64,000 bases of DNA from Desulfomonilia bacterium (GCA_963664325.2 CAXXDQ010000008.1:192001-256000), one strand, 5' to 3'. Positions 1 to 17,610 are shown, numbered from the stretch's first letter. The notes: generated from the sequence alone by a model not told the origin. Numbers and translations: made by a program.

Positions 1-2306
1 TCATCGTCAAAGCCGATGCCGTTCAGGATCACGAACCCGCCGCCGTTCAGCGGATCGCCTGCCATGAAAGATTCGGCCAGGTAGTCGAGGGCTGTTCCGT
101 TGATCACGACCCTGGGCTTGCCGACGGCGTTGATAAGTGGACGGCCCGCCGCATTGCCCATGATGTAGGCGGCTCCGCCCTTTGCGCCGTACATGAATGT
201 CTGGCCGACATCACCATAGACCACAAGCTTGCCTTCTTTCATTATCTGGCAGAGCTGGTCCTGGGCGTTGCCATGCACATGGATTTCCATCCCGTCGATG
301 CCGGAAGCCAGATAGTCGCCCGATGAGCCGTAGACGTCTATCCGGACATCTTTTGTAGCCGGGCCGAGTCCGCAGCCTGTGAACCTCTGTCCCCGGTATT
401 TATATACGATGAAGCGCTTCCAGCCGAGTTTGTTGGCCCTGGCGATCATGACGGCATCGCAGTTATCGCCTTCGGGTTCAAATTGTTCGGCATTGATTAC
501 CAGCGTTTTTTCCATTTTACCCGGTGCCCTGAGCTTCTCTCGGGTGGAGAAATCAACCAGGGTGAATGCCGAGGCGGGTTTTTCATTGATCTTTCGCGTT
601 GATGAAAAAATTTCATCCAGGTTTATTTTGATCACATGCTGCACCGAGCTTCTTTTAATGGCCCCGGTGTTGTAGCGGATATCATTCAAAAGAGTCAGGG
701 CCGAGATTGCCGTCTGCTTGAACCCGTCATCCGTTAACGCCATGCCTTTGATGGTCTCCACGGCATACATCAGGCTGTTGGCATCGAATCCAGGAATGCC
801 GTCCCTTATGTACTCGAATATCTTCCGTGCGGCGATTGCACCGTCCTTTTCGGCAGACAGGGCTTTCAGCTGTTTTTCAATTTTCCTGCATTCGCCTGTT
901 TCTTCAATCTTCAAAGAGATGTCGCAAGCCGTTTTGTCCTTAGGGATGATGATTTCCTTGCCGAACTTGTCGGTGCAGACTAACCTTTTATTTTCCGACC
1001 CGTCGTCCGCGTCCTTGAGGCTGAATATAAACGAACCGCCGTCCGTATAGCTGCCGCCCCTCGCGTTCCAGTACTTGTCCGCAATCGGCTTGAAGCGGGG
1101 GTCTTCCCTTTCAAGGGAAATCAGTGTCGCATCGATGGCCTGTTTTTCCGAACAGATGAGGCCGATCTGCACCTCTCCATCCTGCAGCGCGAAAACCTGC
1201 GGACGGAGCATGGCAGTATCGGTAATGCCGATGAGCTGGAACTGCCTGTTCCTCACGTCATTCCTGGCGATGATAAAGAACCACGGACCGTCGGGCGATG
1301 CATTGACGTGATGCGTCTGTATGGCCTTGTAGAGTTCCTGTTTATCCGGGGGCAGCATGTCGAAATCCATCTCGGAAGTTGGGGCCATGGCCTCGATCAG
1401 GTATTCGAGAGGGTACTTGTACACGCGGCTCCACAGGTCGAGGAGCAGCGCCGCTTCCTCGGTGTCCGTCAGGAACAGCGGAAAATAGTTTCTCTGCTTG
1501 AGGTATTCATAAACCGACTGGTAGTTTGCGAAGTCCCCGTTATGCACCAGGGCTTCGTTAAGCGCGCTGAACGGATGGCAGCCGCCAGGATGCCATACGC
1601 GGCCCCGTGTCGGGTAGCGCTGGTGGGCAAGCCAGGCATGGGCTTTGAAGTCATCCAGTTTGTAATACCTGACGACGCTCTCGGCATAGCCGACTATTTT
1701 CAGGATCATCATGTTCCTGCCGTGGGACATTACAAATGCCTTTTTCTCGCCGAGAGAGGCGTAGTACCTGGTGTTTATCCTGAAGCTGTTCTGATAGACG
1801 AATTCGTCTTCGGCATCGCGCCTGTCGAGAGATTTAAAGCCGTTGTCCTTGATGTATTTGTCCAGCACGTCATCTTTGACGCGGACGAAATAGCGCATTA
1901 TATCAGGCGGCCTCACTTCCAGGCCTATGCTTTTATGGTCCTTGAGCGTGTCAAGCTTTTGAGCCTTGTCTATTTTGAAAAACGGCTTGATGAAGTCGTT
2001 TTCAATCTCCTGGGCGACGCTGCTGTCCAGCAGGGCGATATGCAGCATGTAGTCGTCATCCAGGACCTGCCTGGATACGCCCAGGGCCTTGGGTACAAAG
2101 CCTACGGCGCCTATGCCGCCGCCTTTTCCGTTGCCCCTGTTGTGCATCTGCACGGACGGTTCGAAGATGTTTTTCCCGGTGACGGGAATGGAGCTGATGA
2201 ATCCCGTGACACCGCATCCGCCTTCTTCTTCGGTATTCGGGGCGAGTTTCGGAACTTCCCTGCAAATCCCTGTTCGCGACTGTAATATTTTTTCTGCGTT
2301 ATCCAT
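1..2306 (-). CDS. Glutamate synthase subunit: class II (Ntn) glutamine amidotransferase fused to GXGXG domain; runs off left edge
   Basis: Absent from the ORF track because it is edge-truncated. Manual translation from ATG at 2306 (GGAG RBS about 10 nt upstream) gives MDNAEKILQSR...EEEGGCGVTGF...MHNRGNGKGGG. The same frame at the left edge gives GXGXG-type GGGFVILNGIGFDD. The full frame was not checked codon by codon. Confidence 0.85.
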   Translation of the reverse strand, partial: MDNAEKILQSRTGICREVPKLAPNTEEEGGCGVTGFISSIPVTGKNIFEPSVQMHNRGNGKGGGIGAVGFVPKALGVSRQVLDDDYMLHIALLDSSVAQEIENDFIKPFFKIDKAQKLDTLKDHKSIGLEVRPPDIMRYFVRVKDDVLDKYIKDNGFKSLDRRDAEDEFVYQNSFRINTRYYASLGEKKAFVMSHGRNMMILKIVGYAESVVRYYKLDDFKAHAWLAHQRYPTRGRVWHPGGCHPFSALNEALVHNGDFANYQSVYEYLKQRNYFPLFLTDTEEAALLLDLWSRVYKYPLEYLIEAMAPTSEMDFDMLPPDKQELYKAIQTHHVNASPDGPWFFIIARNDVRNRQFQLIGITDTAMLRPQVFALQDGEVQIGLICSEKQAIDATLISLEREDPRFKPIADKYWNARGGSYTDGGSFIFSLKDADDGSENKRLVCTDKFGKEIIIPKDKTACDISLKIEETGECRKIEKQLKALSAEKDGAIAARKIFEYIRDGIPGFDANSLMYAVETIKGMALTDDGFKQTAISALTLLNDIRYNTGAIKRSSVQHVIKINLDEIFSSTRKINEKPASAFTLVDFSTREKLRAPGKMEKTLVINAEQFEPEGDNCDAVMIARANKLGWKRFIVYKYRGQRFTGCGLGPATKDVRIDVYGSSGDYLASGIDGMEIHVHGNAQDQLCQIMKEGKLVVYGDVGQTFMYGAKGGAAYIMGNAAGRPLINAVGKPRVVINGTALDYLAESFMAGDPLNGGGFVILNGIGFDD

Positions 2307-2323
2307 TATATGCATACTCCACT

Positions 2324-3805
2324 TTATTTGCTGTAGTCCAGATGCTCGAGCAGGTCGGTGCGGCCGACCAGTTCGCCGACGCTCTTCATGCCGAATCCCC
2401 TGAGGATGTCGACGAGCTGTTCGTTCCAGGCGTTGTACATGTTGGTAAGGCGCTGTGTCGCCCATTCCTCGTCGAAGAGATCTGCCAGTTCGGAATCCGT
2501 AGAGGCTATGCCACGGGCGCAGCCGCGTCCCGATTCGCAGTTGCCGCAGCGCACGCATTCGAGGGAAACCAGTTCCGCCGTGCCGATGACAGCGCCGTCA
2601 GCCCCAAGGCAGATGGCCTTGGCCAGGTCGTGGGCCGTCCTTATGCCGCCCGAGGCGATCAGCGTCATTGCATCCCTGGCGCCTTCATCCTTCAGGAAAT
2701 TATGGACCTTTGTAATGGCGTACTCGATGGGCATGGCTATATTCTTTTTTGCAATGTCCGGGGCCGCGCCGGTGCCGCCGTACCCGCCGTCGATGTGAAT
2801 GATGTGGGCTCCGGCATAGTATGAGCCGACCGCAACCATGTCCACATCGTTAGGCGTCGAAACCTTGACCGAAACAAGGGCATTCGGGTTCATCTCCTTG
2901 ATCCAGTCGATGTGCTTCTTGTGGTCTTCGATTGAATATACGGAATGGAAGGGGAAAGGCGAGAACAGTGATGTGCCCTGGACGGCCTCACGCATTCTGG
3001 CCACGCTGGCCGTATTCTTTTCTCCGAGCAGATGTCCGCCGAGGCCGGGCTTCGCACCCTGTGCATATTTGAACTCGATAATCTTTACGCGTTGGATCGT
3101 CTCCTCTCGCACGCCGAACAACCCGGTCGCAACCTGGGTGATCACATGGTCGTCATAAGGGTGAAGTATTTCCGGATAGCCTCCTTCGCCTGTACAGGTA
3201 AAGGTGTTCCAGATGGTTGCGTTTCTCGCCTTCGATACCATTGTGGGGAGGCTTACGGAGCCGAACGACATCCCGCCTCCGTAAACGGGAGTTGAGATGA
3301 CTATATCGGCCCTGCCGTCGTTTCTGCGGTTCAGCTTTATGGCCGTTGATATCTCATGCCTGTCAACATCAGGGGGGTCGGAGGGGAATTTGAGGCGCAA
3401 CTTGTCAAAGCCGCCTCCCGAATTTCCCACATTGTATTCAAGGTCATTGCGGTCGGGGGGATAGCCGGTTTCGGCCATAATCCATGTCGCGGTGATTATA
3501 TCCGCTGTCCAGCGGTAGTCTCCGAGTGTTTCATACATGGGATTCAGTGAGAGGCTCAAAGCCTTGCGCGGACATTTTGCTATGCAGCAGAATTTCCTTT
3601 CCTGGCATTCGAAGCCGATACACCTGTAGTCAATCGGGGGCTTTACCTTGTTGTGGCCTTCGATCCTTTCATGGACGCCGAAAGGACAGGTATTGGCGCA
3701 TGTACCGCAGTTGATGCAGGCGTCGGACCTAGTGACCTTATACTTGGGGACATGGTGTTTGAACCTTGAAGGAGTTTCCTTGATTCTGACAGTCGATGGT
3801 TTCAT
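2324..3805 (-). CDS. Glutamate synthase FMN-binding subunit (archaeal GltB2 type) with N-terminal ferredoxin domain
   Basis: CINCGTCANTCP; GGMSFGS; TGEGG; QVATGLFGV; EFKYAQGAKPGLGGHL; VSVKV; IDGGYGGTGAAP; ASGGIR; C-terminal CVRCGNCESGRGC. Confidence 0.92.
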   Translation of the reverse strand: MKPSTVRIKETPSRFKHHVPKYKVTRSDACINCGTCANTCPFGVHERIEGHNKVKPPIDYRCIGFECQERKFCCIAKCPRKALSLSLNPMYETLGDYRWTADIITATWIMAETGYPPDRNDLEYNVGNSGGGFDKLRLKFPSDPPDVDRHEISTAIKLNRRNDGRADIVISTPVYGGGMSFGSVSLPTMVSKARNATIWNTFTCTGEGGYPEILHPYDDHVITQVATGLFGVREETIQRVKIIEFKYAQGAKPGLGGHLLGEKNTASVARMREAVQGTSLFSPFPFHSVYSIEDHKKHIDWIKEMNPNALVSVKVSTPNDVDMVAVGSYYAGAHIIHIDGGYGGTGAAPDIAKKNIAMPIEYAITKVHNFLKDEGARDAMTLIASGGIRTAHDLAKAICLGADGAVIGTAELVSLECVRCGNCESGRGCARGIASTDSELADLFDEEWATQRLTNMYNAWNEQLVDILRGFGMKSVGELVGRTDLLEHLDYSK

Positions 3806-5211
3806 AAGTTCACCGCTTCTTTTTTCTTGAACAGTTTCCCGAAGGTTTCATTGTCGATATCTTCGAAGAATATGGCCCTGCCGGTCTCGCCTCTGAGACG
3901 GCGGGCCTCCCTGATACCCATGGCGCCCATCATCTCGAGAATCTGCGAATGCCAGGCGCCCATAAGATTGACGATTCTCTGTTTTATAACCCTGGCAGAG
4001 ACCTTGTGCAGTCCGGCCGGAAGAACGAGAGGCTTTTCTGAATCCTCATACAGCCTTGCGCCCAGGGCGATGAAGAGGGGAATGTTTATCGCCGTCAGGT
4101 CAGTGCCGCAGATCATGGCCTTTGGCACATGTTCCGCCATGCCTATTCCGCCTGAGGCCATAATGCTTATCTCATCGCGGATTTTCTCTTCCACCAGCCT
4201 TAAGTGAACTGCGCGTATGATATCCTTTATCAGCCGGGGTTTCGAACCCGGTGCGGGATGAACCTCCCTGCCGCGATAGTCCGCAACAATATGGATAATT
4301 TCGGCACCGATATGCGCAAGGCCGGATACGACCGCTTCAACATTATCGGATGCCGGTACGCGGATAATTGTAAGGGCATTGCAGATTTTCCTGATCTTGT
4401 CTTTGACTGATGTAAAACCGGAAAGCATTTTTTCGGTATAGTCTATTTCAACGATCCTCGCTTTTTTCAGGATGGCCTTGTTCGCTTCGATTTGGCCGGC
4501 GGATACAAGCGGGATGATGTTATCGGCATATTTATCGAATTCATCCGTGATATCTTCTGCCGGCATGATGATGCAGGTTCCTATTTCCGAAGCTGCCTTG
4601 ACTATTGAAAGCTTTACGTGGGGATGAAGGTTTTCCGGCAATATGTCAAACACGATCGGGATCGGCAGCGCCAGGGTATCATGAATTTTTGAAAGCAGCC
4701 TTCCTTTGCCGTCAAAGCTGAGATGGTTGAGCTTCCTGCCCAGTTCAACTGCTGTGCTGATATATTCGCGCCCGTGTATGCCGTCCCTTGTGGGCCGTAC
4801 GATCTCGGACATGTCCGTCCACATGCTGTCGAAGCCCTCTCCGGTGAACGGCCCGCGGTAACCTGCACCGGTGACCGGGACCTTGCCATCCTCGGCCTGC
4901 TTCCAGAGGGTTATGAACATATCCGGCTTCCAGAAAGCACCCCCGGTTTTATGATAATCATCCTGTATGGATTTTACCAGTGCGCCGCGCGGGCACTCCT
5001 GGATGCATCTGAAACAGTTTCTGCATACGGAGGTGTGCGGGTCCGCCATTTGACGGGGGTCGTCTTTGCGGCGCTTGTGCGCTTCGTAGATGCACACCTT
5101 GGTGCACTTTCCGCAGTTGATGCAGTTCTCGCCGCGGGTTATGTTGAACTTGAACATATACTCAAGCTCAAGAGGGGTTGCTTTGGTATGAATGTGATAC
5201 TTTTTTGGCAT
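3802..5211 (-). CDS. Glutamate synthase-related protein, 2x[4Fe-4S] plus divergent FMN barrel
   Basis: CINCGKCTKVC, CRNCFRCIQECP, GAGYRGPFTGEGFDSMWTDMSEIVRPTRDG, ASGGI, LRGETGR; 4-nt overlap with the next gene. Confidence 0.8.
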   Translation of the reverse strand: MPKKYHIHTKATPLELEYMFKFNITRGENCINCGKCTKVCIYEAHKRRKDDPRQMADPHTSVCRNCFRCIQECPRGALVKSIQDDYHKTGGAFWKPDMFITLWKQAEDGKVPVTGAGYRGPFTGEGFDSMWTDMSEIVRPTRDGIHGREYISTAVELGRKLNHLSFDGKGRLLSKIHDTLALPIPIVFDILPENLHPHVKLSIVKAASEIGTCIIMPAEDITDEFDKYADNIIPLVSAGQIEANKAILKKARIVEIDYTEKMLSGFTSVKDKIRKICNALTIIRVPASDNVEAVVSGLAHIGAEIIHIVADYRGREVHPAPGSKPRLIKDIIRAVHLRLVEEKIRDEISIMASGGIGMAEHVPKAMICGTDLTAINIPLFIALGARLYEDSEKPLVLPAGLHKVSARVIKQRIVNLMGAWHSQILEMMGAMGIREARRLRGETGRAIFFEDIDNETFGKLFKKKEAVNL

Positions 5212-5375
5212 GATCGTTATCCTTTAATAATAGTGGTGAGTGGCGAAGGATGAGTTAAAAACCGATATGGGACAGGATTGTTATAGAAATCCATCAATAA
5301 GGCATCATATTTTTTCGCGTTTTCTATTTTCATTTAACCCGCCGTATTTGCCTCACTGCCCGATACCAGTCTGAA

Positions 5376-7223
5376 TCAACTGTTCCTTTCCACCATATCC
5401 CAGTAATCCGTGCTTTCGTCGACTTTTTTAAGGAACCCGGCTATCTGTTCTTCGGGCCTGCCGAATTTAAATTCAATGCGCTTTTCAAGCGCTTCCCATA
5501 GTGCCATCAACTCGAGATTGGTCTGGCAGATATCTTCACATGCCTTGCATTTCATGCACATGAATGCCTTGGCGGCCTCTTCCGGAGTAACTTCTTTCCC
5601 GTCAGAGAGCTTCATGGCCAGTGCAATTTTACCTTTTGCAGTGAGGGCTTCGTCCCTGGTGACCAGGTATGCCGGGCATACGGCGATGCAGTTTCCGCAC
5701 TTTGCGCAGGCATGAGTGCTGAGCTCGAGATCAAGTTTGTCAACTTTCATGTTTCTGCCAAAAATCATTATGATGGCCTTGCCGATAATCGGCGAGAAAA
5801 TGGACAGAAGGCTCATGGATATGTTGAAGAACACAGGGTGGAAGAGGCCGGAGGTGATTAAATTTGAATCGATGCTGAAGAATTTGCCCGGATTCAGGAT
5901 ATTCTCGGGGTCGACCCTGTGCTTATATTCCCTCAGGTCGGACTGTTCCTGCCTGCTGAAGAGATAATTGATGAAAGAGGCATTCCAGAGTCCCAGTCCG
6001 TAAGGACGGGCTCCCAGACTTACGGCGGCCTTAGTCAGCAGTGAAACAAGAGGCATGCTGATGAAATATTTCTTGCTTCTTGAATCGCACAGGAATGTGG
6101 ACATGATCAGGGCGGAATGCTTGTCGATGATGTATGAGTCGATGCAGACCTCAACCCCGAAATCGTTGCCGAGCTTTTTCGCTTTCATGGTGAATGCCGC
6201 TGCAGACTTTATCGGCATGATGATTTCGCTGGCGAGTATGGTGGGTCCGAGGCGTTTTGTCTTCATTCCGAACAGGCGTTCATTCCACAGGTAGTTGGCC
6301 ACATAGCTGGGAGCCTCTTCGATACTGGCATTTAATGCCATGAATTTGGAAAAGACCTCGTCGTCCTCGGCGCTTCCGAATTCTATCAGGACGCCCGCCG
6401 TCTTCCTGAAAATGACTGCGTGCACCATCTCATTTATATCGCCAAGGTGGTTTTCATCAACGAAGCGAATAACGTTGGGATTCAAATTCTGAGACTCCAT
6501 GGTGTTTATGAATTCCCTGATAAACGTGAAAGCGTCCTTATCGCCTTTGAAATAGAGAAGGTGGGGATATGTCGCCTGGGGGACGTCACGCAGTTTGATT
6601 GTTGCCTCTGCAATGATGCCGAATTCTCCCTCCGTGGATATGAAATACTTGAAATCTTTGTCGGCAGGGGTCAGCTTTAAAATTTCTCCTTTGCCGGTAA
6701 TTACGGTCATGGACACTATTTGCTTTGATATATGGCCGTACCTGAAGCTGTTGATGCCGTACCCTCCCGTTGATATCCATCCTGCAACCGTAGAGAATTT
6801 GCTCGAAGGGTATGACATCAGACAAAGGCCTTCCTTTTTTGCGGCGATATCGATATCGCTCCATCTGGCGCCGGCTTCGACGGTTACAGTCTTGTCTTTC
6901 GTGTTGAGTTCCAGGATTTTTCTGAAGGGGGAAAGGTCAACAACTATACCTGCTTTTGTCGGGATAACGCCGCCGAATCCCCAGGATGCAGCACCTCTGG
7001 CTATTACAGGAATTTTTTTGTCATTTGCGAATCTGAGGACCTTCTGGATCTCTTCCTGAGTTTTGGGCTGTACGACAAAAGTGGGCATTGTCTTGAAAAA
7101 TGATTTTATCATGATAGGGGGTACATCGCCGATATCATGACTGTACATCTCCAATTCTTCAGCTTTGTCTAATACCCTGATATCGCTTTCAATCCGTCTG
7201 AATTCTTCTGCCAATGTCTTCAT
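5376..7223 (-). CDS. FAD-binding (PCMH/GlcD-like) oxidoreductase with C-terminal 2x[4Fe-4S] domain
   Basis: VVQPKT..E, ARGAASWGFGG, VTVEAGA, STVAGWISTGG, TEGEFGII, DPENILNPGK; CAKCGNCIAVCP and CMKCKACEDIC. Confidence 0.85.
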   Translation of the reverse strand: MKTLAEEFRRIESDIRVLDKAEELEMYSHDIGDVPPIMIKSFFKTMPTFVVQPKTQEEIQKVLRFANDKKIPVIARGAASWGFGGVIPTKAGIVVDLSPFRKILELNTKDKTVTVEAGARWSDIDIAAKKEGLCLMSYPSSKFSTVAGWISTGGYGINSFRYGHISKQIVSMTVITGKGEILKLTPADKDFKYFISTEGEFGIIAEATIKLRDVPQATYPHLLYFKGDKDAFTFIREFINTMESQNLNPNVIRFVDENHLGDINEMVHAVIFRKTAGVLIEFGSAEDDEVFSKFMALNASIEEAPSYVANYLWNERLFGMKTKRLGPTILASEIIMPIKSAAAFTMKAKKLGNDFGVEVCIDSYIIDKHSALIMSTFLCDSRSKKYFISMPLVSLLTKAAVSLGARPYGLGLWNASFINYLFSRQEQSDLREYKHRVDPENILNPGKFFSIDSNLITSGLFHPVFFNISMSLLSIFSPIIGKAIIMIFGRNMKVDKLDLELSTHACAKCGNCIAVCPAYLVTRDEALTAKGKIALAMKLSDGKEVTPEEAAKAFMCMKCKACEDICQTNLELMALWEALEKRIEFKFGRPEEQIAGFLKKVDESTDYWDMVERNS

Positions 7224-7314
7224 AATTTTCAGTTCTCTTTCAATCGCTTTGGTTTCATGGCTATAATACCATTTGTTTTAATATTCTATATAAGCAAAAC
7301 ATTCAATTTTATTG

Positions 7315-7330
7315 AGCAAGATATATGCCA
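7315..7330 (-). promoter_or_regulatory. Sigma-54 (-24/-12) promoter for the glutamate synthase operon
   Basis: Minus strand TGGCATATATCTTGCT = GG-N10-GC, about 90 nt upstream of the ATG at 7223. Confidence 0.75.
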
Positions 7331-7679: not shown

Positions 7680-10271
7680 ATGGGACTGTCGGCAAGGGTT
7701 ACTACCGGTATTGAGGGGCTCGATAATATAATCGACGGCCTCAGGATGGGAGACAATGTCGTCTGGCAGATTGAAGACATAAACAATTACAAAAAACTTG
7801 CGGAAGCTTTTGTAAAAAGTGCCATAAATGAAAAAAGACATGTCGTTTACATGAGATTCGGCCATCACGATCCTTTGTTTACATCAGGCGACGGGTTGAA
7901 AATCTATACGCTGAATCCGGACATAGGTTTTGAAGGGTTCTCATCAGAAGTACATAAAATAATAACAAAAGAGGGCCGGGACGTCTTTTACGTTTTCGAC
8001 AGCCTCTCCGATCTGCTGTCTTCTTGGGCGACTGATCTGATGATTGGCAATTTCTTTTTTATAACATGCCCCTATCTCTTTGATCTGAATACTGTCGCCT
8101 ATTTTGCACTTCTGCAAAACCGCCATTCGCACCACACGATTGCCAGAATAAGAGAGACCACGCAGCTCCTCATGGATGTGCACAGCACCGGAAAGGATTT
8201 GTATGTGCACCCCTTGAAGGTATGGAAAAGGTATTCGCCGACCATGTTCCTGCCTCATATGAAGGACGGGGATGCATTTGTTCCGATTACAAGAAGCCTT
8301 GACGCCTCCCGCCTGCTGTCACAGATATCCCGGAGATGGGATGAATCCACAAGAAGACAGCTCGATTACTGGGACAGGCTTTTCCTTCAGGCGGAAGAGA
8401 TGCAGACAAGGGATGTCAGCCCCGATGAAAAGAAAGAGATGATAGACCAGTTGTGCAGGATCATGCTGGTAAGGGAACCCCAAATGCTTGGCCTCGCCAG
8501 GGATCATTTCACGCTCGAGGACCTGCTGCAGATTAAAACCAGATTGATCGGAACTGGATATATCGGCGGCAAAACAGTGGGGATGCTGCTTGCAAGAAAG
8601 ATCCTCACGACAGATACCAGGATCGGGTTTGAACAGTATTTTGAACCACATGACTCCTTTTTTATAGGCTCGGATGTCTTTTATACCTATATTGTTCAGA
8701 ACGGCTGGTGGAAGCTGAGGATGAAGCAGAAGACAAAGGAGGGCTATCTAAAGGTCGCAAGAGAACTGAAGAATAAAATGGCTAAGGGCGTTTTCCCGGA
8801 CGAAGTCAAGGAGCAATTCTTACAGGTAATCGAATATTTCGGGCAGTCTCCCATAATAATCAGGTCTTCTTCCCTGCTCGAGGATTCCTTCGGCCATGCA
8901 TTTGCAGGGAAGTACGAAAGCTTTTTCTGCGCAAATCAGGGTACGCCCGAGGAGAGGTATGTCCAGTTCGAAGAAACGGTCAGAAAGGTTTACGCATCAA
9001 CGATGAATGAGGATGCGCTTATTTACAGGAGACAGCGCGGCCTGGAGGATCATGACGAGCAGATGGCGTTACTTGTGCAGCGTGTTTCCGGGGCTCACAG
9101 GAAAGATTACTTCTTCCCGGACCTTGCCGGCGTGGGTATGTCCTATAATACATTTGTCTGGAACAAGGGGATGAATCCCGCTGCCGGCATGCTGAGGCTG
9201 GTCCTCGGGCTCGGTACGCGCGCAGTAAACCGCATCGAAAATGACTATCCGAGAATGGTGGCCCTTGATGAACCCTTGCTGAGACCTCATGCGGGGATGA
9301 AGGATTTGAGAACCTACTCGCAGAGGAATGTCGATCTGATCAATATAAGGGAAAATGCATTTCAGACGGTAACGCTCATAAAGATGTTTGAGGAAAAGGT
9401 TGACATCCCGTTTGAAAAAATTGCCGCTCCTGATTATGAGATGACGGAAATACTGAGGAAGACAAGAGGAGAGGATATTGAGTCCTGGCTCCTGACTTTT
9501 GATAACCTGTTCACTGATACATCTTTTGTCAAGGTAATGCACGGCCTGTTGAAGAACCTTGAGAAGGCATACAGCTATCCTCTGGAGATCGAGTTTACGG
9601 TAAATTTCAATGAAGTGGGCGATTTCAGGATCAACCTGCTCCAGTGCAGGCCGCTGCAGGTCATAGGCATTGAAAAAAATATAAAGTTTCCAGAGAGGAT
9701 AAGTTCAGAAAAAGTAATTTTCAGTATGAACGGAAACTTTATGGGCGGCAGTATCGTTCAGCCGGTAAACAGGGTGATTTTCATACAGCCTGAGGCCTAC
9801 AGCGCCCTTCATCAGCATGAAAAATACGAGGTGGCGAGGATTATAGGCGATCTGAACAGAACGATAGAAAACAGGGATGACATGCCCACAATGCTTCTGG
9901 GTCCGGGCAGATGGGGCACAACAACACCGGCCCTCGGTATCCCGGTCCATTTCTCCGAGATAAACAACATGGCTGTTCTTGGTGAGATTGCCCATCTTGA
10001 CGGCAATCTCATGCCCGAACTTTCTTACGGAACGCATTTTTTTCAGGACCTTGTTGAGAACAGGATATTCTATGTGGCGATCTTCCCCTGGGAGGAAGAT
10101 GTTATTTTCAACAGCAAGAGGCTTTTAAAGGGCAGGAGCATCTTGAGCAGGATTCTGCCGGATGCGAAAAAATATAAAGATGTAATAAAGGTCTTTGAGA
10201 CAGCTGGTTCCGGACTTAATGTGGTCTCGGATGTGGTAACACAAAGGATCATGTGTTTCTTCAGAAGCTGA
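7680..10271 (+). CDS. PEP/pyruvate-binding (PPDK_N/ATP-grasp) domain protein with N-terminal KaiC/RecA-like domain
   Basis: IGGKTVG, IIRSSSLLEDSFGHAFAGKYES, LGLGTRAV, EIEF..LLQCRP, GPGRWG; N-terminus VTTGIEGLDNIIDGLRMGD and VFDSLS. Confidence 0.8.
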   Translation: MGLSARVTTGIEGLDNIIDGLRMGDNVVWQIEDINNYKKLAEAFVKSAINEKRHVVYMRFGHHDPLFTSGDGLKIYTLNPDIGFEGFSSEVHKIITKEGRDVFYVFDSLSDLLSSWATDLMIGNFFFITCPYLFDLNTVAYFALLQNRHSHHTIARIRETTQLLMDVHSTGKDLYVHPLKVWKRYSPTMFLPHMKDGDAFVPITRSLDASRLLSQISRRWDESTRRQLDYWDRLFLQAEEMQTRDVSPDEKKEMIDQLCRIMLVREPQMLGLARDHFTLEDLLQIKTRLIGTGYIGGKTVGMLLARKILTTDTRIGFEQYFEPHDSFFIGSDVFYTYIVQNGWWKLRMKQKTKEGYLKVARELKNKMAKGVFPDEVKEQFLQVIEYFGQSPIIIRSSSLLEDSFGHAFAGKYESFFCANQGTPEERYVQFEETVRKVYASTMNEDALIYRRQRGLEDHDEQMALLVQRVSGAHRKDYFFPDLAGVGMSYNTFVWNKGMNPAAGMLRLVLGLGTRAVNRIENDYPRMVALDEPLLRPHAGMKDLRTYSQRNVDLINIRENAFQTVTLIKMFEEKVDIPFEKIAAPDYEMTEILRKTRGEDIESWLLTFDNLFTDTSFVKVMHGLLKNLEKAYSYPLEIEFTVNFNEVGDFRINLLQCRPLQVIGIEKNIKFPERISSEKVIFSMNGNFMGGSIVQPVNRVIFIQPEAYSALHQHEKYEVARIIGDLNRTIENRDDMPTMLLGPGRWGTTTPALGIPVHFSEINNMAVLGEIAHLDGNLMPELSYGTHFFQDLVENRIFYVAIFPWEEDVIFNSKRLLKGRSILSRILPDAKKYKDVIKVFETAGSGLNVVSDVVTQRIMCFFRS

Positions 10272-11445: not shown

Positions 11446-12438
11446 TCAAAAAACACCGGCAGCCTTTTTCAATTCAACCAGCAGGTTGTCCTCAACATCT
11501 ATCATGCCGGATTCAAGACGCTGCCTGGCAAGGGCGCTTTCCTTTTCACCGGGAAGGAATATCTCGTCAATACCTGGAAGCCTTTTTGATGACTTCACCT
11601 TCAGTATGATTTCTGAAACGTTTTTCTTGAACCGGTCCTCTCCGTTCAGGAGTTCAGGGTCCACGGCCAGGAGGAGATGGCCCCAGTTGCCTTTGCTGTT
11701 TCCTATACCGCAGAATGCCGCCCCTGTAAGCGGGCCAGCAAGTATCTCTGTAATAAGCGCAAGTCCCGAGCCCTTGTAGCTCCGGTCAAAGGAGCGGATT
11801 GCCCCTGCAATTGCCTTTTTGGGGTCCGTTGTCGGTTCGCCATCGGCATCGTAGGCGATATCGTCTGGAATGCTCCTGCCTGCGGTTACCGCTTCGACAA
11901 GCCCGAAAAATGAGGTCGCGGCAGTTGACATGTCCAGGACAATGGGGTCAGGTTCGGCGGGAATCGCGACTGCTATCGGATTTGTGCCGAACACAGGCTC
12001 ATACGAGCCGTAAGCCGCCACCCTTTCTGGTGACCTGCTGAATACAAAACCGACAAATCCCTTAAGTGCAAGGCGGGATGCATAATAGCCGATAGCCCCG
12101 GAAGATGTGCTTGTGTTGAATGTGCCTGCAATGGCCAATCCGGATTTCCCGGCTTTTTCCATTACACAGCCGAGGGCTTTTTCCATCACGATCATTGCAT
12201 GGTTCTGATTGCCGTTGATCTGCGCCGAAACGGGGGACTCCTTTTCGATTGTTATCCCACCGGCATTCATATTTTTCGGTATCCCCTTGTCGATGAGCTT
12301 GACCACACCCTGATTGTTGTCTCTCATCTGTGCGTACAGCAGGACATCCCTGATGATCTTAACCTCGTCATCATTGTAGCCGTACTTTCTGATGGCAGCT
12401 TCTGTAATATTCACAAGTTCTGCAATCGATATTTTCAT
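11446..12438 (-). CDS. Ldh_2-family (type 2 malate/L-lactate/sulfolactate dehydrogenase-like) oxidoreductase
   Basis: FGTNPIAVAIP, LDMSTA, DGEPTTDP, YKGSGLA..EIL, LPGE. Confidence 0.85.
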   Translation of the reverse strand: MKISIAELVNITEAAIRKYGYNDDEVKIIRDVLLYAQMRDNNQGVVKLIDKGIPKNMNAGGITIEKESPVSAQINGNQNHAMIVMEKALGCVMEKAGKSGLAIAGTFNTSTSSGAIGYYASRLALKGFVGFVFSRSPERVAAYGSYEPVFGTNPIAVAIPAEPDPIVLDMSTAATSFFGLVEAVTAGRSIPDDIAYDADGEPTTDPKKAIAGAIRSFDRSYKGSGLALITEILAGPLTGAAFCGIGNSKGNWGHLLLAVDPELLNGEDRFKKNVSEIILKVKSSKRLPGIDEIFLPGEKESALARQRLESGMIDVEDNLLVELKKAAGVF

Positions 12439-12480: not shown

Positions 12481-14148
12481 TCATTTGTAGCTGTCTTTAT
12501 GCACATCCTTGACAGCACGTCCGGAAGGGTCGATCATCTTGGCAAAGGCTTCATCCCACTTGATAGCCGTCGGCGTGGAGCAGGCGACCGAGGGTCCTTC
12601 GGGAACGCAGCGGGCCGAGCTGTCCAGCGGGAAGAATTCCTGAAAAATGGCGCGGTAATAATAAGCCTCTTTCGTAACCGGAGTATTTATCGGAAAGCGG
12701 TAACGGGCGTTTTCCATCTGGGTGTCGCTGACCGCATTCGCCGCAACCTCGCGCAAAGTGTCTATCCATCTGTAGCCGACCCCGTCGGAAAACTGCTCCT
12801 TCTGCCTCCAGGCTACTTCAGGGGGCAGATAATCCTCAAACGCCTTCCTGAGGATATGCTTTTCAATCCTGCCGTCTTTGCACATCTTGTCCTCCGGGTT
12901 GAGCCGCATAGCCACATCCATGAATTCCTTGTCCAGGAACGGAACGCGCCCTTCAACTCCCCAGGCGGCCAGGGATTTGTTGGCTCTCAGGCAGTCGTAT
13001 TTGCTAAGCATGGACAGCTTTCTTACCGTCTCCTCGTGAAATTCTTTAGAATCCGGGGCCTTGTGGAAATAAAGGTATCCGCCGAAAATTTCATCGGCGC
13101 CTTCTCCCGACAGAACCATCTTGACGCCCATTGACTTGATCTTTCTGGACATAAGATACATTGGCGTTGAAGCCCTTATAGTCGTCACATCATAGGTTTC
13201 TATGTGATAGATTACATCACGTATTGCATCCAGGCCTTCCTGAACGGTAAAGGTGAAATTGTGGTGGATTGAACCTATATGCTCAGCCACTTTCTGTGCT
13301 GCCGCAAGGTCTGGAGAGCCTTCCAGTCCTATGGCAAATGAATGCAACTGCGGCCACCAAGCATCCTTGAGACCCCCGGTTTCAACCCTTTTTGCGGAAT
13401 ATTTTTTCGCGACAGCCGAAACTATCGAACTGTCGAGGCCTCCTGAAAGCAGGACTCCGTAAGGGACATCTGACATCAACTGGCGCTCTACCGCTTCCTC
13501 CAGGGCCCTGTGAAGGTCTTTGATGCTGGTCTTGTTGTTCTTCACATTGCCGTATTCCATCCAGTCCCTTTTGTACCATTCAACCGGAGCTCCATCCCTG
13601 CTGAAAAGGTAATGGCCCGGAGGAAACTCCTCAACCGTGTTGCAAACGCCCATAAGGGCCTTCATTTCAGAGGAGACGAAGAAATTGCCATGATCGTCGC
13701 GGCCGGTGTAAAGAGGGATTATTCCTATATGGTCGCGGCCGATCATATATAAGTCATTTTCGCTGTCATAAAGGACAAACGCGAAGATGCCGTTCAAATC
13801 CTCCAGGAAATCGAAACCCTTCTGTCTGTAAAGCGCCAGGATGATCTCGCAGTCGGATTCTGTCAGGAAATTGTATGGTTCCTTAAGCGTCTTTTTAAGG
13901 TCCTTGTGGTTGTAGATCTCACCATTTACAGCTAGGGCAAGCTTCCCATCGTCTGAATAAAGCGGCTGGGCGCCTTTGTTTACATCGACGATTGAAAGCC
14001 TTTCATGAGCGAGTATTGCTTTTTCGCTCACATATATGCCGCTCCAGTCAGGGCCGCGGTGGCGCATTTTTCGGCTCATCTCAAGGGCCTTCACCCTGAG
14101 CTCCTTTGCATCCGTCTTGATGTCTAAAATTCCCAGTATCGAGCACAT
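12481..14148 (-). CDS. asnB: Asparagine synthase B (glutamine-hydrolysing)
   Basis: MCSILG Ntn Cys, RHRGPDWSG, HERLSIVD, NGEIYNH, LLSGGLDSS, SGEGADEIFGGY, RVPFLD, KEQFSDGVG. Confidence 0.96.
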   Translation of the reverse strand: MCSILGILDIKTDAKELRVKALEMSRKMRHRGPDWSGIYVSEKAILAHERLSIVDVNKGAQPLYSDDGKLALAVNGEIYNHKDLKKTLKEPYNFLTESDCEIILALYRQKGFDFLEDLNGIFAFVLYDSENDLYMIGRDHIGIIPLYTGRDDHGNFFVSSEMKALMGVCNTVEEFPPGHYLFSRDGAPVEWYKRDWMEYGNVKNNKTSIKDLHRALEEAVERQLMSDVPYGVLLSGGLDSSIVSAVAKKYSAKRVETGGLKDAWWPQLHSFAIGLEGSPDLAAAQKVAEHIGSIHHNFTFTVQEGLDAIRDVIYHIETYDVTTIRASTPMYLMSRKIKSMGVKMVLSGEGADEIFGGYLYFHKAPDSKEFHEETVRKLSMLSKYDCLRANKSLAAWGVEGRVPFLDKEFMDVAMRLNPEDKMCKDGRIEKHILRKAFEDYLPPEVAWRQKEQFSDGVGYRWIDTLREVAANAVSDTQMENARYRFPINTPVTKEAYYYRAIFQEFFPLDSSARCVPEGPSVACSTPTAIKWDEAFAKMIDPSGRAVKDVHKDSYK

Positions 14149-14248
14149 TTGGTTACTCCTTCAGTTTGTGTTGAGCTGACAAGCCGTCAAGCGTAATCAT
14201 GATATTTTTTCGGCTTCATGGCTTGTCTCCGCTCATAAGCCCTCTCTT

Positions 14249-14641
<393 letters not shown>

Positions 14642-14791
14642 TTACCGGCACATGTGACAGAGTATGTCTGCGGGCTTTTTCTTCGCCCCAGGCTATATAA
14701 ACAAAACGAAATGCTCGGGATACTATTTCCTCCATTCCATTACTGCATCTCCCTGAATACCAAATAGAATTATTTTTTATTTGCATATCAT

Positions 14792-16021
14792 TTAACTGCT
14801 GTAAGCGGTTTCACTGTGTTCGCTCAAATCCATGCCCATTACCTCGGATTCTGGTGTGAGCCTCAGGCCAATGAATTTATCGATTATCTTCAGAAGCAGC
14901 CAGCTTGCTATGAACACGAATGCCCCTACTGCTGCAACCGCCAGTGCCTGAACACCGAGAAGCGAAAGGTTGCCGTTTATGAGGCCGTCTGCACCGGCAG
15001 GATTTATGGCTTTTGATGCGAAGATTCCCACACATATGCTGCCGATAACCCCGCCGAACCCGTGTATGCCGACTACATCGAGACTGTCGTCATACCCGAG
15101 CCTGGATTTTACGGACACCGCTGCATAGCATGCACCGCCAGCCAGAAGGCCGATTATCACAGCCGAATTCGGACCTACAAAACCTGATGCCGGAGTGATG
15201 GTAGCAAGGCCTGCCACAGCACCTGAGGCTGCGCCGAGCGTTGTCGGTTTGCCTCGGTGAAGCCATTCAACAGCAACCCACATTGCCATTCCGGCCATCC
15301 CTCCCAGGTGTGTAGCAATATAGGCATTTCCAGCTACAGCATTGGCCGCCAGGGCGCTGCCGCCGTTGAAACCGAACCAGCCGAACCAGAGCAGGCCTGT
15401 ACCGATAAGGGTCATGGGCAGATTATGGGGAATGAACTTTTCATGGCCGTAACCCTTCCTTACACCTGTAACGACTGCAGCTGCAAGGGCGGCTGCACCG
15501 CAGGATAGATGGACTACAAGCCCGCCGGCGAAATCCAGCACACCCATATTTTTCAGCCACCCTCCTGCACCCCATACCCAATGGCATACCGGATTATACA
15601 CTAAAACAGCCCAGAGAATGCTGAAAAGAAGGAATGGACCGAACCTTATTCTTTCAGCAAATGTACCGGTTATGAGTGCAGGGGTAATTACCGCGAACAT
15701 GCACTGGAAGATCATAAATACATTGTGTGGAATCGTGGCTGCATAATCAGGATTTGGTGCCGATGATACACCGCGGAGGCCGATCCATGAGAAGTTTCCG
15801 ATAAAACCAGCGATATCAGGTCCGAATGAAAGGGAATATCCCAGATAAACCCATTCCAATGTTATCAGTGAAATCATTATAAAGCTCTGCATGATTGTGC
15901 CAAGGACGTTCTTGCCTCTCACCATGCCAGCGTAGAATATTGCAAGACCCGGCACCATGAGCATAACCAGGGCGGATGACAAGAGGACAAAAGCCGTGTC
16001 GGCTGACTGAATATGTTCCAT
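14792..16021 (-). CDS. amtB: Ammonium transporter
   Basis: FQCMFAVITPAL, HWVWG.GGWL, DFAGGLVVH, LWFGWFGFNGGS, DDSLDVVGIHG; start at 16021 after GGAGGT. Confidence 0.96.
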   Translation of the reverse strand: MEHIQSADTAFVLLSSALVMLMVPGLAIFYAGMVRGKNVLGTIMQSFIMISLITLEWVYLGYSLSFGPDIAGFIGNFSWIGLRGVSSAPNPDYAATIPHNVFMIFQCMFAVITPALITGTFAERIRFGPFLLFSILWAVLVYNPVCHWVWGAGGWLKNMGVLDFAGGLVVHLSCGAAALAAAVVTGVRKGYGHEKFIPHNLPMTLIGTGLLWFGWFGFNGGSALAANAVAGNAYIATHLGGMAGMAMWVAVEWLHRGKPTTLGAASGAVAGLATITPASGFVGPNSAVIIGLLAGGACYAAVSVKSRLGYDDSLDVVGIHGFGGVIGSICVGIFASKAINPAGADGLINGNLSLLGVQALAVAAVGAFVFIASWLLLKIIDKFIGLRLTPESEVMGMDLSEHSETAYSS

Positions 16022-16054
16022 GTAAAAACACCTCCGGAGGGTTTTATATGGTAA

Positions 16055-16070
16055 AGCAACTGGAATGCCA
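16055..16070 (-). promoter_or_regulatory. Sigma-54 promoter for amtB-glnK-asnB
   Basis: Minus strand TGGCATTCCAGTTGCT = GG-N10-GC, about 34 nt upstream of the amtB start. Confidence 0.75.
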
Positions 16071-16136
16071 GATATGCATGATTCATAACCACAGGTTAAT
16101 AAAACATTTTTTTGGCAAAAAACTTTAAGGAATGGC

Positions 16137-16221
16137 ACATATTTGTATATTTTCAAGATGCTGAAACAATAATGTGAATTAAATAATAAAAGATTGATTA
16201 AATTTGCAAAATATTGTTTGA
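16137..16221. promoter_or_regulatory. Cluster of putative activator sites between divergent sigma-54 promoters
   Basis: TGAAACAATAATGTG at 16162-16176 (14/15 match to 7461-7475); ACATATTTGT at 16137-16146; a weaker reverse copy at 16206-16221. Confidence 0.55.
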
Positions 16222-16385: not shown

Positions 16386-17610
16386 ATGACTTTTATCGGC
16401 GAAGATCTGTTCCATTTCCAGGCGTCACTTATTCAGCAGGGCTCTTCTTTTGAAGAGTTCATAAGAGAAAACTACATCAACAAGTGGGTCGGCGATGCGT
16501 TATATGCCGCTATGAATGTGCGCACCACTATGGTGACCGCTGTTCATAATTTCCTGGAAAATGAAGGCCTCCTGAATCTTGAAAGGGTTCAGATGAGCCC
16601 GATTACAGACCCTCTTGCCCATGATGTTGAGCATGTGCCCGTAATCCATTACAAGGGTATGCCATACGTGACAACGCATTCGATGATTTACCATAAGTTC
16701 ATGGCATGTTTTAACCCCAGGTTCAAAGGAATATTTGTTGATTCTCCGAATGTCAGGCTTGAAATAGAAAGTCCGCAGAGAAAACAGCGCGGAAAATATC
16801 TGATAGATTTTTCACAGGTAGACATTGAAGTCAAACGTGGACAGGGCCATCGACTTCGAAACATACAAAAATGAGCCTGAAAAAGTTAAGGTATTACTCC
16901 GTGAGGATCTGGAAAAAGCGTATGATTTTTTTGAAAGGATGCTTATTCATGCTGTCAAGGCGGTAATTGAAAAGAATGAAGATGATCTGAAGGCATTGGA
17001 TGTTACAATTGATGTACCGACCCAACCGTTTCCAAAACTCAGGAACGACGAGATTATGAAGAAGTACGGCAAGGCAGGAGCAGAGACAGGTGCAGGAGAG
17101 GATGCCGGTTCACAGTTCTTCTGGATAATAGGCCTTATGCGCGAAAACTATGACCTTATTTACCCGTACATTCACAAGGACGGCAGCAAAACCCCGATTT
17201 CATCATTCAGCTCTGATATGATTTACAATTACGATATCTGCGTAAGGGCGAAAAGCCGGTCTACAGGGAAATATATGCCTGCCCTTGAGATTCTCTCCGG
17301 TGCGGTCCGCGAATGGCTTTACGAGCCTATTGTTGAGAGACTCATTGACAACAAGGTAATAGTGGAAAGGCCGGTGTTCAAGGACGGCAATATAACCAAT
17401 ATAGATATACTTGACGGGTACGGGCCTTTCCTTGCAACCGTCAACATGAAGGACGCTTCCGGCAAGCCCTATTTCCCTGATACCTTCGGTGGCGGATTGG
17501 GGGTTGAGCGTCTCCTCTATGGACTCCTCAGGGGCAGCAAGATCGAGAAGATCGACGACGTTACGTTCTTTGGCAAAAACCCGGATTCCTTCCCGATATT
17601 CCTTTTCTAG
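16386..17610 (+). CDS. Archaeal-type ammonia-dependent asparagine synthetase (AsnRS-catalytic-core paralog, AS-AR); +1 frameshift near 16839
   Basis: SPITDPL, THSMIYHK, SPNVRLE, FSQVDIEV, then EILSGAVREWLYE and GGGLGVERL; no anticodon-binding domain. Removing one G in CGTGGAC joins the two ORFs. Confidence 0.78.

Follow-up and report, generated by a model that had tools for sequence, protein, structure and literature searches.

Background

When ammonium is scarce, ammonia enters biomass mainly through glutamate synthase. By electron donor, three classes of the enzyme are recognised (NADPH, NADH and ferredoxin), and an F420 form is putative. Here we describe a stretch of 64,000 nucleotides (nt) from a Desulfomonilia bacterium (GCA_963664325.2, CAXXDQ010000008.1:192001-256000; G000:C8:192001-256000 in our numbering), referred to below as the window, which carries four genes, A, B, C and D, on its minus strand. 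The genes form one operon headed by a sigma-54-type promoter. We propose, with a probability of roughly 0.75, that their products make up one glutamine:2-oxoglutarate amidotransferase (glutamate synthase, GOGAT) expressed from this promoter under nitrogen control.

The GltB/GltD enzyme of Azospirillum brasilense (PDB 1ea0, 2vdc, 6s6s) shares most of its parts with this locus: the flavin mononucleotide (FMN)/2-oxoglutarate barrel, an N-terminal nucleophile (Ntn) glutaminase with propeptide, the GXGXG beta-helix, an Fe-S cluster beside FMN, a second flavin (flavin adenine dinucleotide, FAD) linked to FMN by an Fe-S chain, and a role in the glutamine synthetase (GS)/GOGAT route. The arrangement differs. 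GltB runs in the order glutaminase, central domain, FMN barrel, GXGXG, whereas here the parts are permuted over three genes, with a dead barrel in B, the FMN barrel in C, and glutaminase, insert and GXGXG together in D. According to a 2021 review of Fe-S flavoenzymes (PMC8097209), the central domain of GltB is a truncated barrel that may have arisen from the FMN domain. In our locus it appears to be replaced by a dead paralogue of the FMN subunit, full-length and with a ferredoxin domain of its own, and the barrel cluster has four cysteines in the four-gene form. GltD, an adrenodoxin-reductase-type NADPH/FAD protein, is absent from the operon, and a PCMH-type FAD protein, A, is found instead.

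The ferredoxin-dependent enzyme of Synechocystis (PDB 1ofd, 1llw) likewise has a GltB-type core and no GltD, and its synthase domain matches C at 1e-43, but it is a single chain that takes its electrons from soluble ferredoxin. It has a single [3Fe-4S] cluster and neither an FAD subunit nor ferredoxin domains within the chain. Also related are the archaeal-type split forms and the putative F420-dependent form, the latter named, like the FGltS groups, in PMC9012536. They share with our locus separate genes for GltB domains, an FMN subunit with a ferredoxin-like N-terminus and the idea of exchangeable input modules. In our locus a single protein, D, combines the glutaminase, a helical insert and GXGXG, B is an additional protein with a dead barrel, and the candidate input is GlcD/LDHD-like and neither FrhB, as in the putative F420-dependent form, nor GltD. 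The review text consulted covers NADPH-, NADH- and ferredoxin-dependent enzymes and archaeal domain open reading frames (ORFs), and no PCMH-type subunit occurs in it (PMC8097209). Full-text searches, with most subscription journals outside their coverage, returned no published study of a glutamate synthase with a PCMH/GlcD-like subunit, and none of the B-C-D clusters without A described below.

Subunit A resembles LctD of the Ldh-EtfAB complex (PDB 7qh2) and mammalian LDHD (PDB 8jdb-8jdy) in its FAD-plus-cap fold and in the LW..R motif that holds the carboxylate arginine. Unlike both, it lacks the metal ligands and the catalytic histidine, adds a C-terminal pair of [4Fe-4S] clusters and is embedded in what we take to be a glutamate synthase.

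Anatomy of the operon

The genes and their control elements are as follows (positions in the window).

5376-7223, minus strand: gene A, 615 amino acids (aa), PCMH-type FAD protein with two [4Fe-4S] clusters
3802-5211, minus strand: gene B, 469 aa, ferredoxin domain with two [4Fe-4S] clusters and a catalytically degenerate Glu_synthase barrel
2324-3805, minus strand: gene C, 493 aa, ferredoxin-like N-terminus and intact FMN/2-oxoglutarate synthase barrel
1-2315, running past the left edge, minus strand: gene D, 878 aa at full length with the first 771 codons inside the window, Ntn glutaminase and GXGXG
7330-7315, minus strand: sigma-54-type -24/-12 element TGGCATATATCTTGCT, 107 nt upstream of the start codon of A
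7492-7483 and 7474-7465, minus strand: paired palindromic ACA-W4-TGT sites, ACATTATTGT and ACAATATTGT, upstream of the promoter

In the relatives described below, the four parts are encoded by separate genes as here (split form) or joined in one chain (fused form), or A is missing (A-less form).

Genes B and C overlap by 4 nt, and D starts at 2315, eight bases past the stop codon of C. The gap between A and B measures 164 nt, and no terminator-like site was found inside it. Gene D ends 321 nt to the left of window base 1 (L002:11679), and 16 nt past its stop codon lies a terminator-like hairpin with a stem of 12 base pairs and a T-rich tail, beyond which come an AMP-ligase gene and then a restriction-modification system on the other strand. 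An earlier note on the window had described a same-strand run of a FAD-PCMH protein with two [4Fe-4S] clusters, a degenerate barrel, an intact FMN barrel and a GATase-GXGXG fusion behind one sigma-54 promoter, with no gltD visible. Profile matches and motifs confirm this description, and inspection of the left flank beyond the window extends it: with the terminator after D and the AMP-ligase gene next, no GltD-type NAD(P)H/FAD subunit is encoded in the operon.

The synthase site lies in C, which matches Glu_synthase (PF01645) at 3.6e-86. Its residues 219-488 align to 904-1170 of A. brasilense GltB (6e-51) and keep the AQGAKPG and GGTGA-type motifs of the FMN barrel. A CxxCxxCx5C motif with four cysteines aligns to the GltB cluster site next to FMN, and by sequence alone the cluster may be 4Fe or 3Fe. 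C is 87-93 % identical among orthologues. Gene B aligns with C from end to end (26 % identity, E 1e-32), and its Glu_synthase match is partial, covering the last ~160 positions (3.8e-6). The QGAKPG and GGTGA motifs and the barrel cysteine ligands are lost, and to judge by these losses B is a dead paralogue of C. Its ferredoxin domain has two CxxCxxCxxxC motifs, whose eight cysteines are invariant in 10/10 sequences.

Gene D consists of a 33-residue propeptide, an Ntn (class II) glutaminase, a helical insert of ~190 aa and a C-terminal GXGXG beta-helix (PF01493 at 2.7e-15, 56.9 bits against a cut-off of 32.5). The motifs RYPTRG, HNGDFANY and TDTE(EAA) align to the GlmS glutaminase, and the RYPTRG, HNG and DTE-type motifs presumably have the catalytic roles that they have in GlmS. 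The segment EEGGCGVTGF follows the leader of ~33 residues in all 12 split and A-less rows of the D alignment, and the CGV nucleophile motif is found in these 12 rows and in 6/6 fused proteins, which is consistent with a glutaminase that has an N-terminal cysteine. The seven best Foldseek hits of the D model are glutamate synthase entries aligned over 252-306 columns, a result that speaks for the C-terminal part only.

Conservation in split and fused forms

Homologues of A form hundreds of clusters of ~614-aa proteins at 67-89 % identity, with source names that include Desulfomonilia, Syntrophus, Smithellaceae, Chloroflexi and Opitutaceae. We searched a sample of 401 genomes of the phylum with A at E<=1e-100 and found a match in 19 of them, the genome of the window included. 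Nine matches have 62-100 % identity; the other ten have 31-36 % and lie inside open frames of 1,924-2,548 aa. Among split-type orthologues the identity of A is 62-89 %. The order A-B-C(-D) is colinear on one strand in 10/10 related split loci, comprising the eight other close hits and two loci from named metagenome-assembled genomes (contig ends truncate L012 and L037).

Six of the ten distant hits were fetched, and each of the six consists of one ORF of 2,528-2,544 aa, in which the segments run A-B-C-D. Pfam matches along the fused chain are FAD_binding_4, FAD-oxidase_C, two ferredoxin domains, Glu_synthase and GXGXG. At E<=1e-20 and within a length band of 1,393-4,435 aa, we count 775 protein clusters of the fused form, under names such as 'glutamate synthase-related protein [Thermodesulfobacteriota]' and 'FAD-binding protein [Syntrophaceae]'. 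With hundreds of clusters matching the split form and 775 the fused form, this architecture is widespread.

The colinearity of A with B-C-D in all ten split loci and its fusion in all six giant ORFs indicate that A is a true subunit. The neighbourhood of the gene thus agrees with the view, put forward in the earlier note, of the FAD/Fe-S protein as a dedicated partner. The fused form has four CxxCxxCxxxC motifs (two in the A segment, two in the B segment) and a three-cysteine barrel motif, Cx5Cx3C, and the ferredoxin domain of C is absent. This set of motifs suggests that the minimal conserved path consists of FAD, the A clusters, the B clusters, the barrel cluster and FMN.

An Ntn glutaminase needs its nucleophile cysteine at a free N-terminus. 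The fused proteins carry the corresponding motif, SDCGVAA(I/V)VSN, near residue 1,665 of the chain (6/6 proteins, L041-L046). Since the nucleophile is mid-chain, we predict that the fused form needs internal self-cleavage before the glutaminase cysteine, if the domain is active.

Promoter and nitrogen-assimilation setting

A -24/-12 element of the form TGGCAY-N5-TYGCW is found 47-129 nt before gene A in 11/11 split loci, against a chance rate that we estimate ourselves at ~0.002 per locus. It is upstream of the fused gene in 0/6 fused loci, in which glnA precedes the gene. Within 220 nt upstream of the element, 19 ACA-W4-TGT palindromes are spread over 11/11 split loci, compared to 0.2 expected from mononucleotide shuffles, at distances of 76-192 nt from the element (the window, L012, L013 and L033-L040). 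These palindromes are candidate binding sites for a NifA-like enhancer-binding protein. We also looked for the NifA-type upstream activating sequence TGT-N10-ACA and rejected it (3 seen, 1.6 expected), ACA-W4-TGT being the conserved site.

A gene for such an activator, with GAF, sigma-54 and HTH_8 domains (488.7 bits on the NifA model, below the cut-off of 528.85), adjoins D in 6/9 scanned split relatives. The genome of the window has a copy with 62 % identity at C8:171036-172544, directly before glnA and a type III glutamine synthetase (GSIII) gene. Both the conserved element and an enhancer-binding protein gene are therefore present, as would be expected of a sigma-54 operon.

The activator, glnA and GSIII genes lie 17-21 kilobases (kb) left of the window, and asnB and amtB are inside it at 12.5-16.2 kb. 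GS genes flank 5/9 of the scanned split loci and 4/6 fused loci; in 4/6 fused loci glnA is directly upstream and carA/carB downstream. Genes for carA or carAB, amtB, PII, asnB, glutamate dehydrogenase (GDH) and NrpR are also near some split or fused loci.

In the whole genome, which is 95.6 % complete, the only PF01645 matches above the family cut-off are genes C and B, and the only PF01493 match is also at the locus. The operon is the only glutamate synthase candidate of this genome. The same holds for 5/5 other split-type and 4/5 fused-type genomes checked, the exception being a fused-type genome (G028) in which a second copy is present. Six Fer4_20 matches elsewhere in the genome of the window might supply a GltD in trans; the best of them adjoins an NfnA-like gene and, by this neighbour, is NfnAB-like. 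The genome also has two GS type I genes and one GSIII gene.

Proposed mechanism and points against it

In the enzyme that we propose, the glutaminase of D, with its N-terminal cysteine exposed after the 33-residue propeptide, would free ammonia from glutamine. The ammonia would reach the FMN barrel of C, where 2-iminoglutarate would be formed and then reduced. The beta-helix of D and the dead barrel of B would act as scaffold, B standing in place of the GltB central domain and, we presume, also forming part of the electron wire. Electrons would enter at the FAD of A and pass through its two [4Fe-4S] clusters, the two clusters of B, the two clusters of C (split form only) and the barrel cluster of C to FMN.

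As judged from this architecture, A is probably the electron-entry subunit. It would take the place of GltD and accept electrons from a donor other than a 2-hydroxy acid oxidised by the LDHD/LctD mechanism. That the one-electron chain begins with a FAD speaks for a donor of two electrons. From equilibrium constants we estimate the half-reaction of glutamate synthase at ~-70 mV and that of a lactate-type donor at ~-190 mV, and many donors would presumably be thermodynamically possible.

Structure prediction is weakly suggestive of the contact between A and B that this path implies. A complex of residues 440-615 of A with B scores 0.38, the best of 3 controls being 0.00, with at least 90 % contact agreement between runs and a partner predicted local distance difference test (pLDDT) of at least 67. 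Of 157 solved complexes, 116 pass the mark that we use for this score, as do 2 of 215 mismatched pairs, and at or below 0.60 there are only 18 of those 157 solved complexes but both passing mismatches.

The promoter element in all 11 split loci, the motifs of C and D and the status as sole candidate support the central claim of the earlier note, a sigma-54-controlled, multi-subunit, non-canonical glutamate synthase. Several results weigh against it. The GATase_6 match of D is weak (7.8e-6, 26.4 bits) and under the cut-off of 27, and the D model is poor over the glutaminase (pLDDT 25-50), becoming confident only from about residue 460, with the insert and then the beta-helix. The cap domain of A taken by itself (290-450) has 0 matches among PDB sequences at E<=10, and it is architecture that assigns the electron input to A. 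The family is patchy, since 0/6 genomes of the same family match A (E<=1e-100) or C (E<=1e-30). With one GDH in the same genome, the operon is not the sole route to glutamate. Finally, the B-C-D core exists in other genomes without A, which indicates that A is not essential to the core chemistry.

A sister form without subunit A

A search of the phylum sample with C separates the matches into three tiers by identity: >=87 % in the nine A-B-C-D genomes, 62-71 % in 101 genomes, and 36-44 % in more distant archaeal-type sequences. The middle tier has the B-C-D core without A, so about a quarter of the 401 genomes carry this type of C. We fetched ten middle-tier loci, listed here with their genomes in the same order.

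L047-L056, A-less loci: genomes G289, G039, G206, G338, G354, G267, G148, G330, G045 and G019

In all ten the gene order is that of the operon of the window, with identities of 37-48 % for B, 61-70 % for C and 56-63 % for D, and no match to A was found in any of them. The 51 of 157 ORFs that were scanned at these loci include a gene for a small MvhD-like (FlpD) [2Fe-2S] protein, upstream of B, in 9/10, MTHFR and MetV-like genes in at least 6/10, an HdrA-like gene in one and GS in two, with GS or carA near some. The genome of the window has two MvhD genes elsewhere.

Because B-C-D is seen with A or with an MvhD-like gene, the core looks like a module that is combined with different redox adaptors, of which A is one. 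The A-less form fits an input role for A, and it also suggests that the core can be fed by protein-borne electrons. The earlier note had grouped all four genes as one enzyme with a dedicated partner; the partner stands, but the grouping has to be redrawn, with B belonging to a B-C-D core that also occurs without A.

One alternative explanation is that B-C-D is a glutamate synthase dependent on ferredoxin or another protein donor, taking up electrons at its ferredoxin-like domains, and that A, instead of being the main entry point, is auxiliary, for example as a route for a second donor, as a sensor or regulator of redox state, or as a sink for electrons. The 101 genomes without A favour such a role, as do the MvhD-like gene at nine of the ten A-less loci, from which the core could take electrons protein to protein, and the loss from A of the canonical catalytic residues described below. 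We nevertheless consider an auxiliary A unlikely. In 775 clusters the enzyme chain begins with a fused A, and 62-89 % identity among split orthologues is a strong constraint for an accessory part. Cap residues of A that are invariant across the split and fused families point to a conserved working site, and a FAD would be unnecessary if donors were one-electron only.

Of the A-less genomes, G045 has B and C in a single ORF of ~1,000 aa, and G330 has a C match inside an open frame of 1,099 aa. At a more distant locus, L057, an example of the archaeal-type split genes, separate GATase_2 (361 aa), C-like (503 aa) and GXGXG (258 aa) genes are beside HdrC/HdrB-like genes. One genome with a contamination of 6 % (G262; L043 and C176:1415-8356) contains a fused A-B-C-D gene together with a C-type gene of the A-less kind at 66 % identity and another type at 38 %; these may be true paralogues or the product of a mixed bin.

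Subunit A and its electron donor

A is made of an LDHD/LctD-like PCMH FAD domain and cap (1-450), a hydrophobic helical linker (~455-490) and an HdrC/GlcF-like domain for two [4Fe-4S] clusters (~500-570). Its profile matches are FAD_binding_4 (PF01565, 3e-36), FAD-oxidase_C (5e-10) and Fer4_8 (6e-9), and the nearest NCBIfam family is GlcD, with a match far below the family cut-off. The two CxxCxxCxxxC motifs span Cys506-516 and Cys556-566, and all eight cluster cysteines are invariant in 16/16 sequences. We also considered a membrane anchor, as residues 465-495 are hydrophobic (19-residue Kyte-Doolittle mean of 1.97), but the model has one long helix at 463-488 and fused forms have charged residues there, and we do not claim a transmembrane segment.

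In a profile search of the PDB, the closest solved relatives of A are LctD (7qh2_C, 3e-40), a glycolate oxidase/D-lactate dehydrogenase entry (1e-34) and mouse LDHD (2e-33). The model of A (pLDDT 78) has mouse LDHD as its top Foldseek hit (E 1e-22), with a target-normalised template modelling score of 0.80 within a range of 0.78-0.81 for the LDHD/LctD group. It superposes about as well on alkyl-dihydroxyacetone phosphate synthase as on LDHD, the sequence alignment to the former covering the FAD domain only.

We compared A with the residues that carry catalysis in these relatives. The paper on LctD has the metal held by His377, His384 and Glu422, with His423 proposed as the base and Arg328 binding the carboxylate (PMC9232219). 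In mouse LDHD the equivalents are His398, His405, Glu442, His443 and Arg347, and the alanine mutant at each is inactive (PMC10589216). The positions of LctD H377, H384, E422 and H423 correspond in A to Y364 (His in fused forms), A371 (Val in fused forms), P407 and Y408. The set is replaced in 16/16 A-family sequences, P407 and Y408 being invariant in all of them. The carboxylate arginine is kept, as the invariant R316 aligned to LctD R328, and an invariant E333 aligns to LctD D346. A therefore has the PCMH FAD and cap fold and the carboxylate arginine of a D-2-hydroxyacid dehydrogenase, and the metal triad and the catalytic histidine are missing. To judge from these replacements, the canonical metal-assisted 2-hydroxyacid mechanism is not preserved in A.

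Some defined site is conserved all the same. The cap residues W313, R316, K323, E333, D380, R382, Y408, W413 and N414 do not vary from the split to the fused families, whose identity is only 31-35 %.

The replaced residues bear directly on a second explanation, which had also been suggested in the earlier note, namely that A is a D-2-hydroxyacid dehydrogenase acting on D-2-hydroxyglutarate, D-lactate or glycolate and fuelling glutamate synthesis. With 2-hydroxyglutarate, one substrate would supply both the carbon skeleton and the electrons. The identity of the closest solved relatives, the LDHD-like fold, the kept arginine and E333 are in its favour, and so is our estimate from equilibrium constants that a lactate-type donor could drive the reaction. 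The loss of the metal ligands and of the catalytic histidine in 16/16 sequences argues against lactate, glycolate and 2-hydroxyglutarate as donors; the same residues are required in LDHD (PMC10589216) and have the same roles assigned in LctD (PMC9232219). It is also hard to see the sole glutamate synthase, serving general nitrogen assimilation, relying on a minor metabolite, and an NAD-dependent D-2-hydroxyacid dehydrogenase gene is near only 1/9 scanned loci (L035). We regard oxidation of a 2-hydroxy acid by A as very improbable.

That the complex is instead a paralogous amidotransferase/reductase acting on another 2-oxo acid or an amine, like the GltB-like N-methylglutamate synthase, can be all but dismissed: the very divergent glutaminase of D (GATase_6 only), the dead barrel of B and a subunit set unlike any characterised glutamate synthase would allow it, but the locus is the only Glu_synthase/GXGXG locus in 10/11 genomes checked, glnA is directly upstream of the fused gene in 4/6 loci, sigma-54, the NifA-like activator, amtB and PII are in its context, C matches the GltB synthase domain at 6e-51, and no methylamine-pathway genes were found among the flanking ORFs scanned.

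Neighbouring genes

The other genes of interest on the right of the operon are listed below.

7680-10271, plus strand: PPDK_N (ATP-grasp) gene, 863 aa, divergent from the operon (PPDK_N 1.5e-49)
11446-12438, minus strand: Ldh_2-family dehydrogenase ORF
12481-14148, minus strand: asparagine synthase B (asnB) ORF
14792-16156, minus strand: ammonium transporter (amtB) ORF
16825-17610, plus strand: ORF of a short AsnA-like (tRNA-synt_2) protein

The last four ORFs, with the activator, glnA and GSIII genes to the left, make up a nitrogen-assimilation neighbourhood of ~45 kb.

Homologues of the PPDK_N gene adjoin the operon in 5/9 related split loci scanned, one of which has two copies.

L013:6977-9595: PPDK_N homologue
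L034:2158-4773 and 12528-15116: two PPDK_N homologues
L035:4715-7300: PPDK_N homologue
L036:3954-6557: PPDK_N homologue
L039:12852-15434: PPDK_N homologue

In four of these five loci the gene is downstream of D on the same strand, 12-159 nt past the end of D; it is absent from the six fused loci. The protein (~865 aa) has a central PPDK_N domain, and its N- and C-terminal parts are unassigned. A search of the cluster database with the PPDK_N-like protein returned only 'PEP/pyruvate-binding domain' clusters.

The AMP-ligase gene past the terminator (L002:9903-11471, minus strand, 529-2,097 nt left of the window) encodes 522 aa with no AMP-binding_C match. Its counterpart in L013 has 567 aa and carries an AMP-binding_C domain. 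The gene may have been truncated by insertion of the restriction-modification gene pair.

About 60 kb to the right of the window, Fer4_20 matches fall in an open frame of 1,489 aa (G000:C8:314986-320334), and an MvhD gene is at C8:315942-316310. By sequence this looks like an HdrA/GltD-like fusion cluster.

Conclusions

On the evidence of sequence, the operon is real, conserved and nitrogen-regulated and probably encodes a glutamate synthase of a non-canonical kind. New in this analysis are the B-C-D/MvhD sister form, the number of clusters in the fused form, its predicted self-cleavage and the upstream palindromes.

It is tentatively conceivable, and we put it forward as a speculation, that B-C-D is a plug-in glutamate synthase which energy-limited anaerobes connect to one or another dedicated redox module, to A in this operon and to MvhD and probably HdrA in the A-less form, such that the very exergonic reduction step is not spent on NADPH. 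The remodelled LDHD-like site of A might then oxidise an unrecognised donor, either a metabolite or a reduced carrier such as electron-transfer flavoprotein, or the enzyme might be the high-potential arm of a flavin-based electron bifurcation that yields reduced ferredoxin. If so, nitrogen assimilation would be coupled directly to catabolic electron flow.

The proposed enzyme would add to the known forms a class of glutamate synthase in which another flavoprotein provides the input, one subunit is a pseudo-enzyme and there are as many as seven Fe-S clusters. The single-chain forms of ~2,530 aa are a natural construct for structural work, and they predict an unusual internal self-cleavage of an Ntn glutaminase. 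From the identity of the donor one would learn by what means syntrophs and other energy-limited anaerobes meet the cost of assimilating nitrogen.

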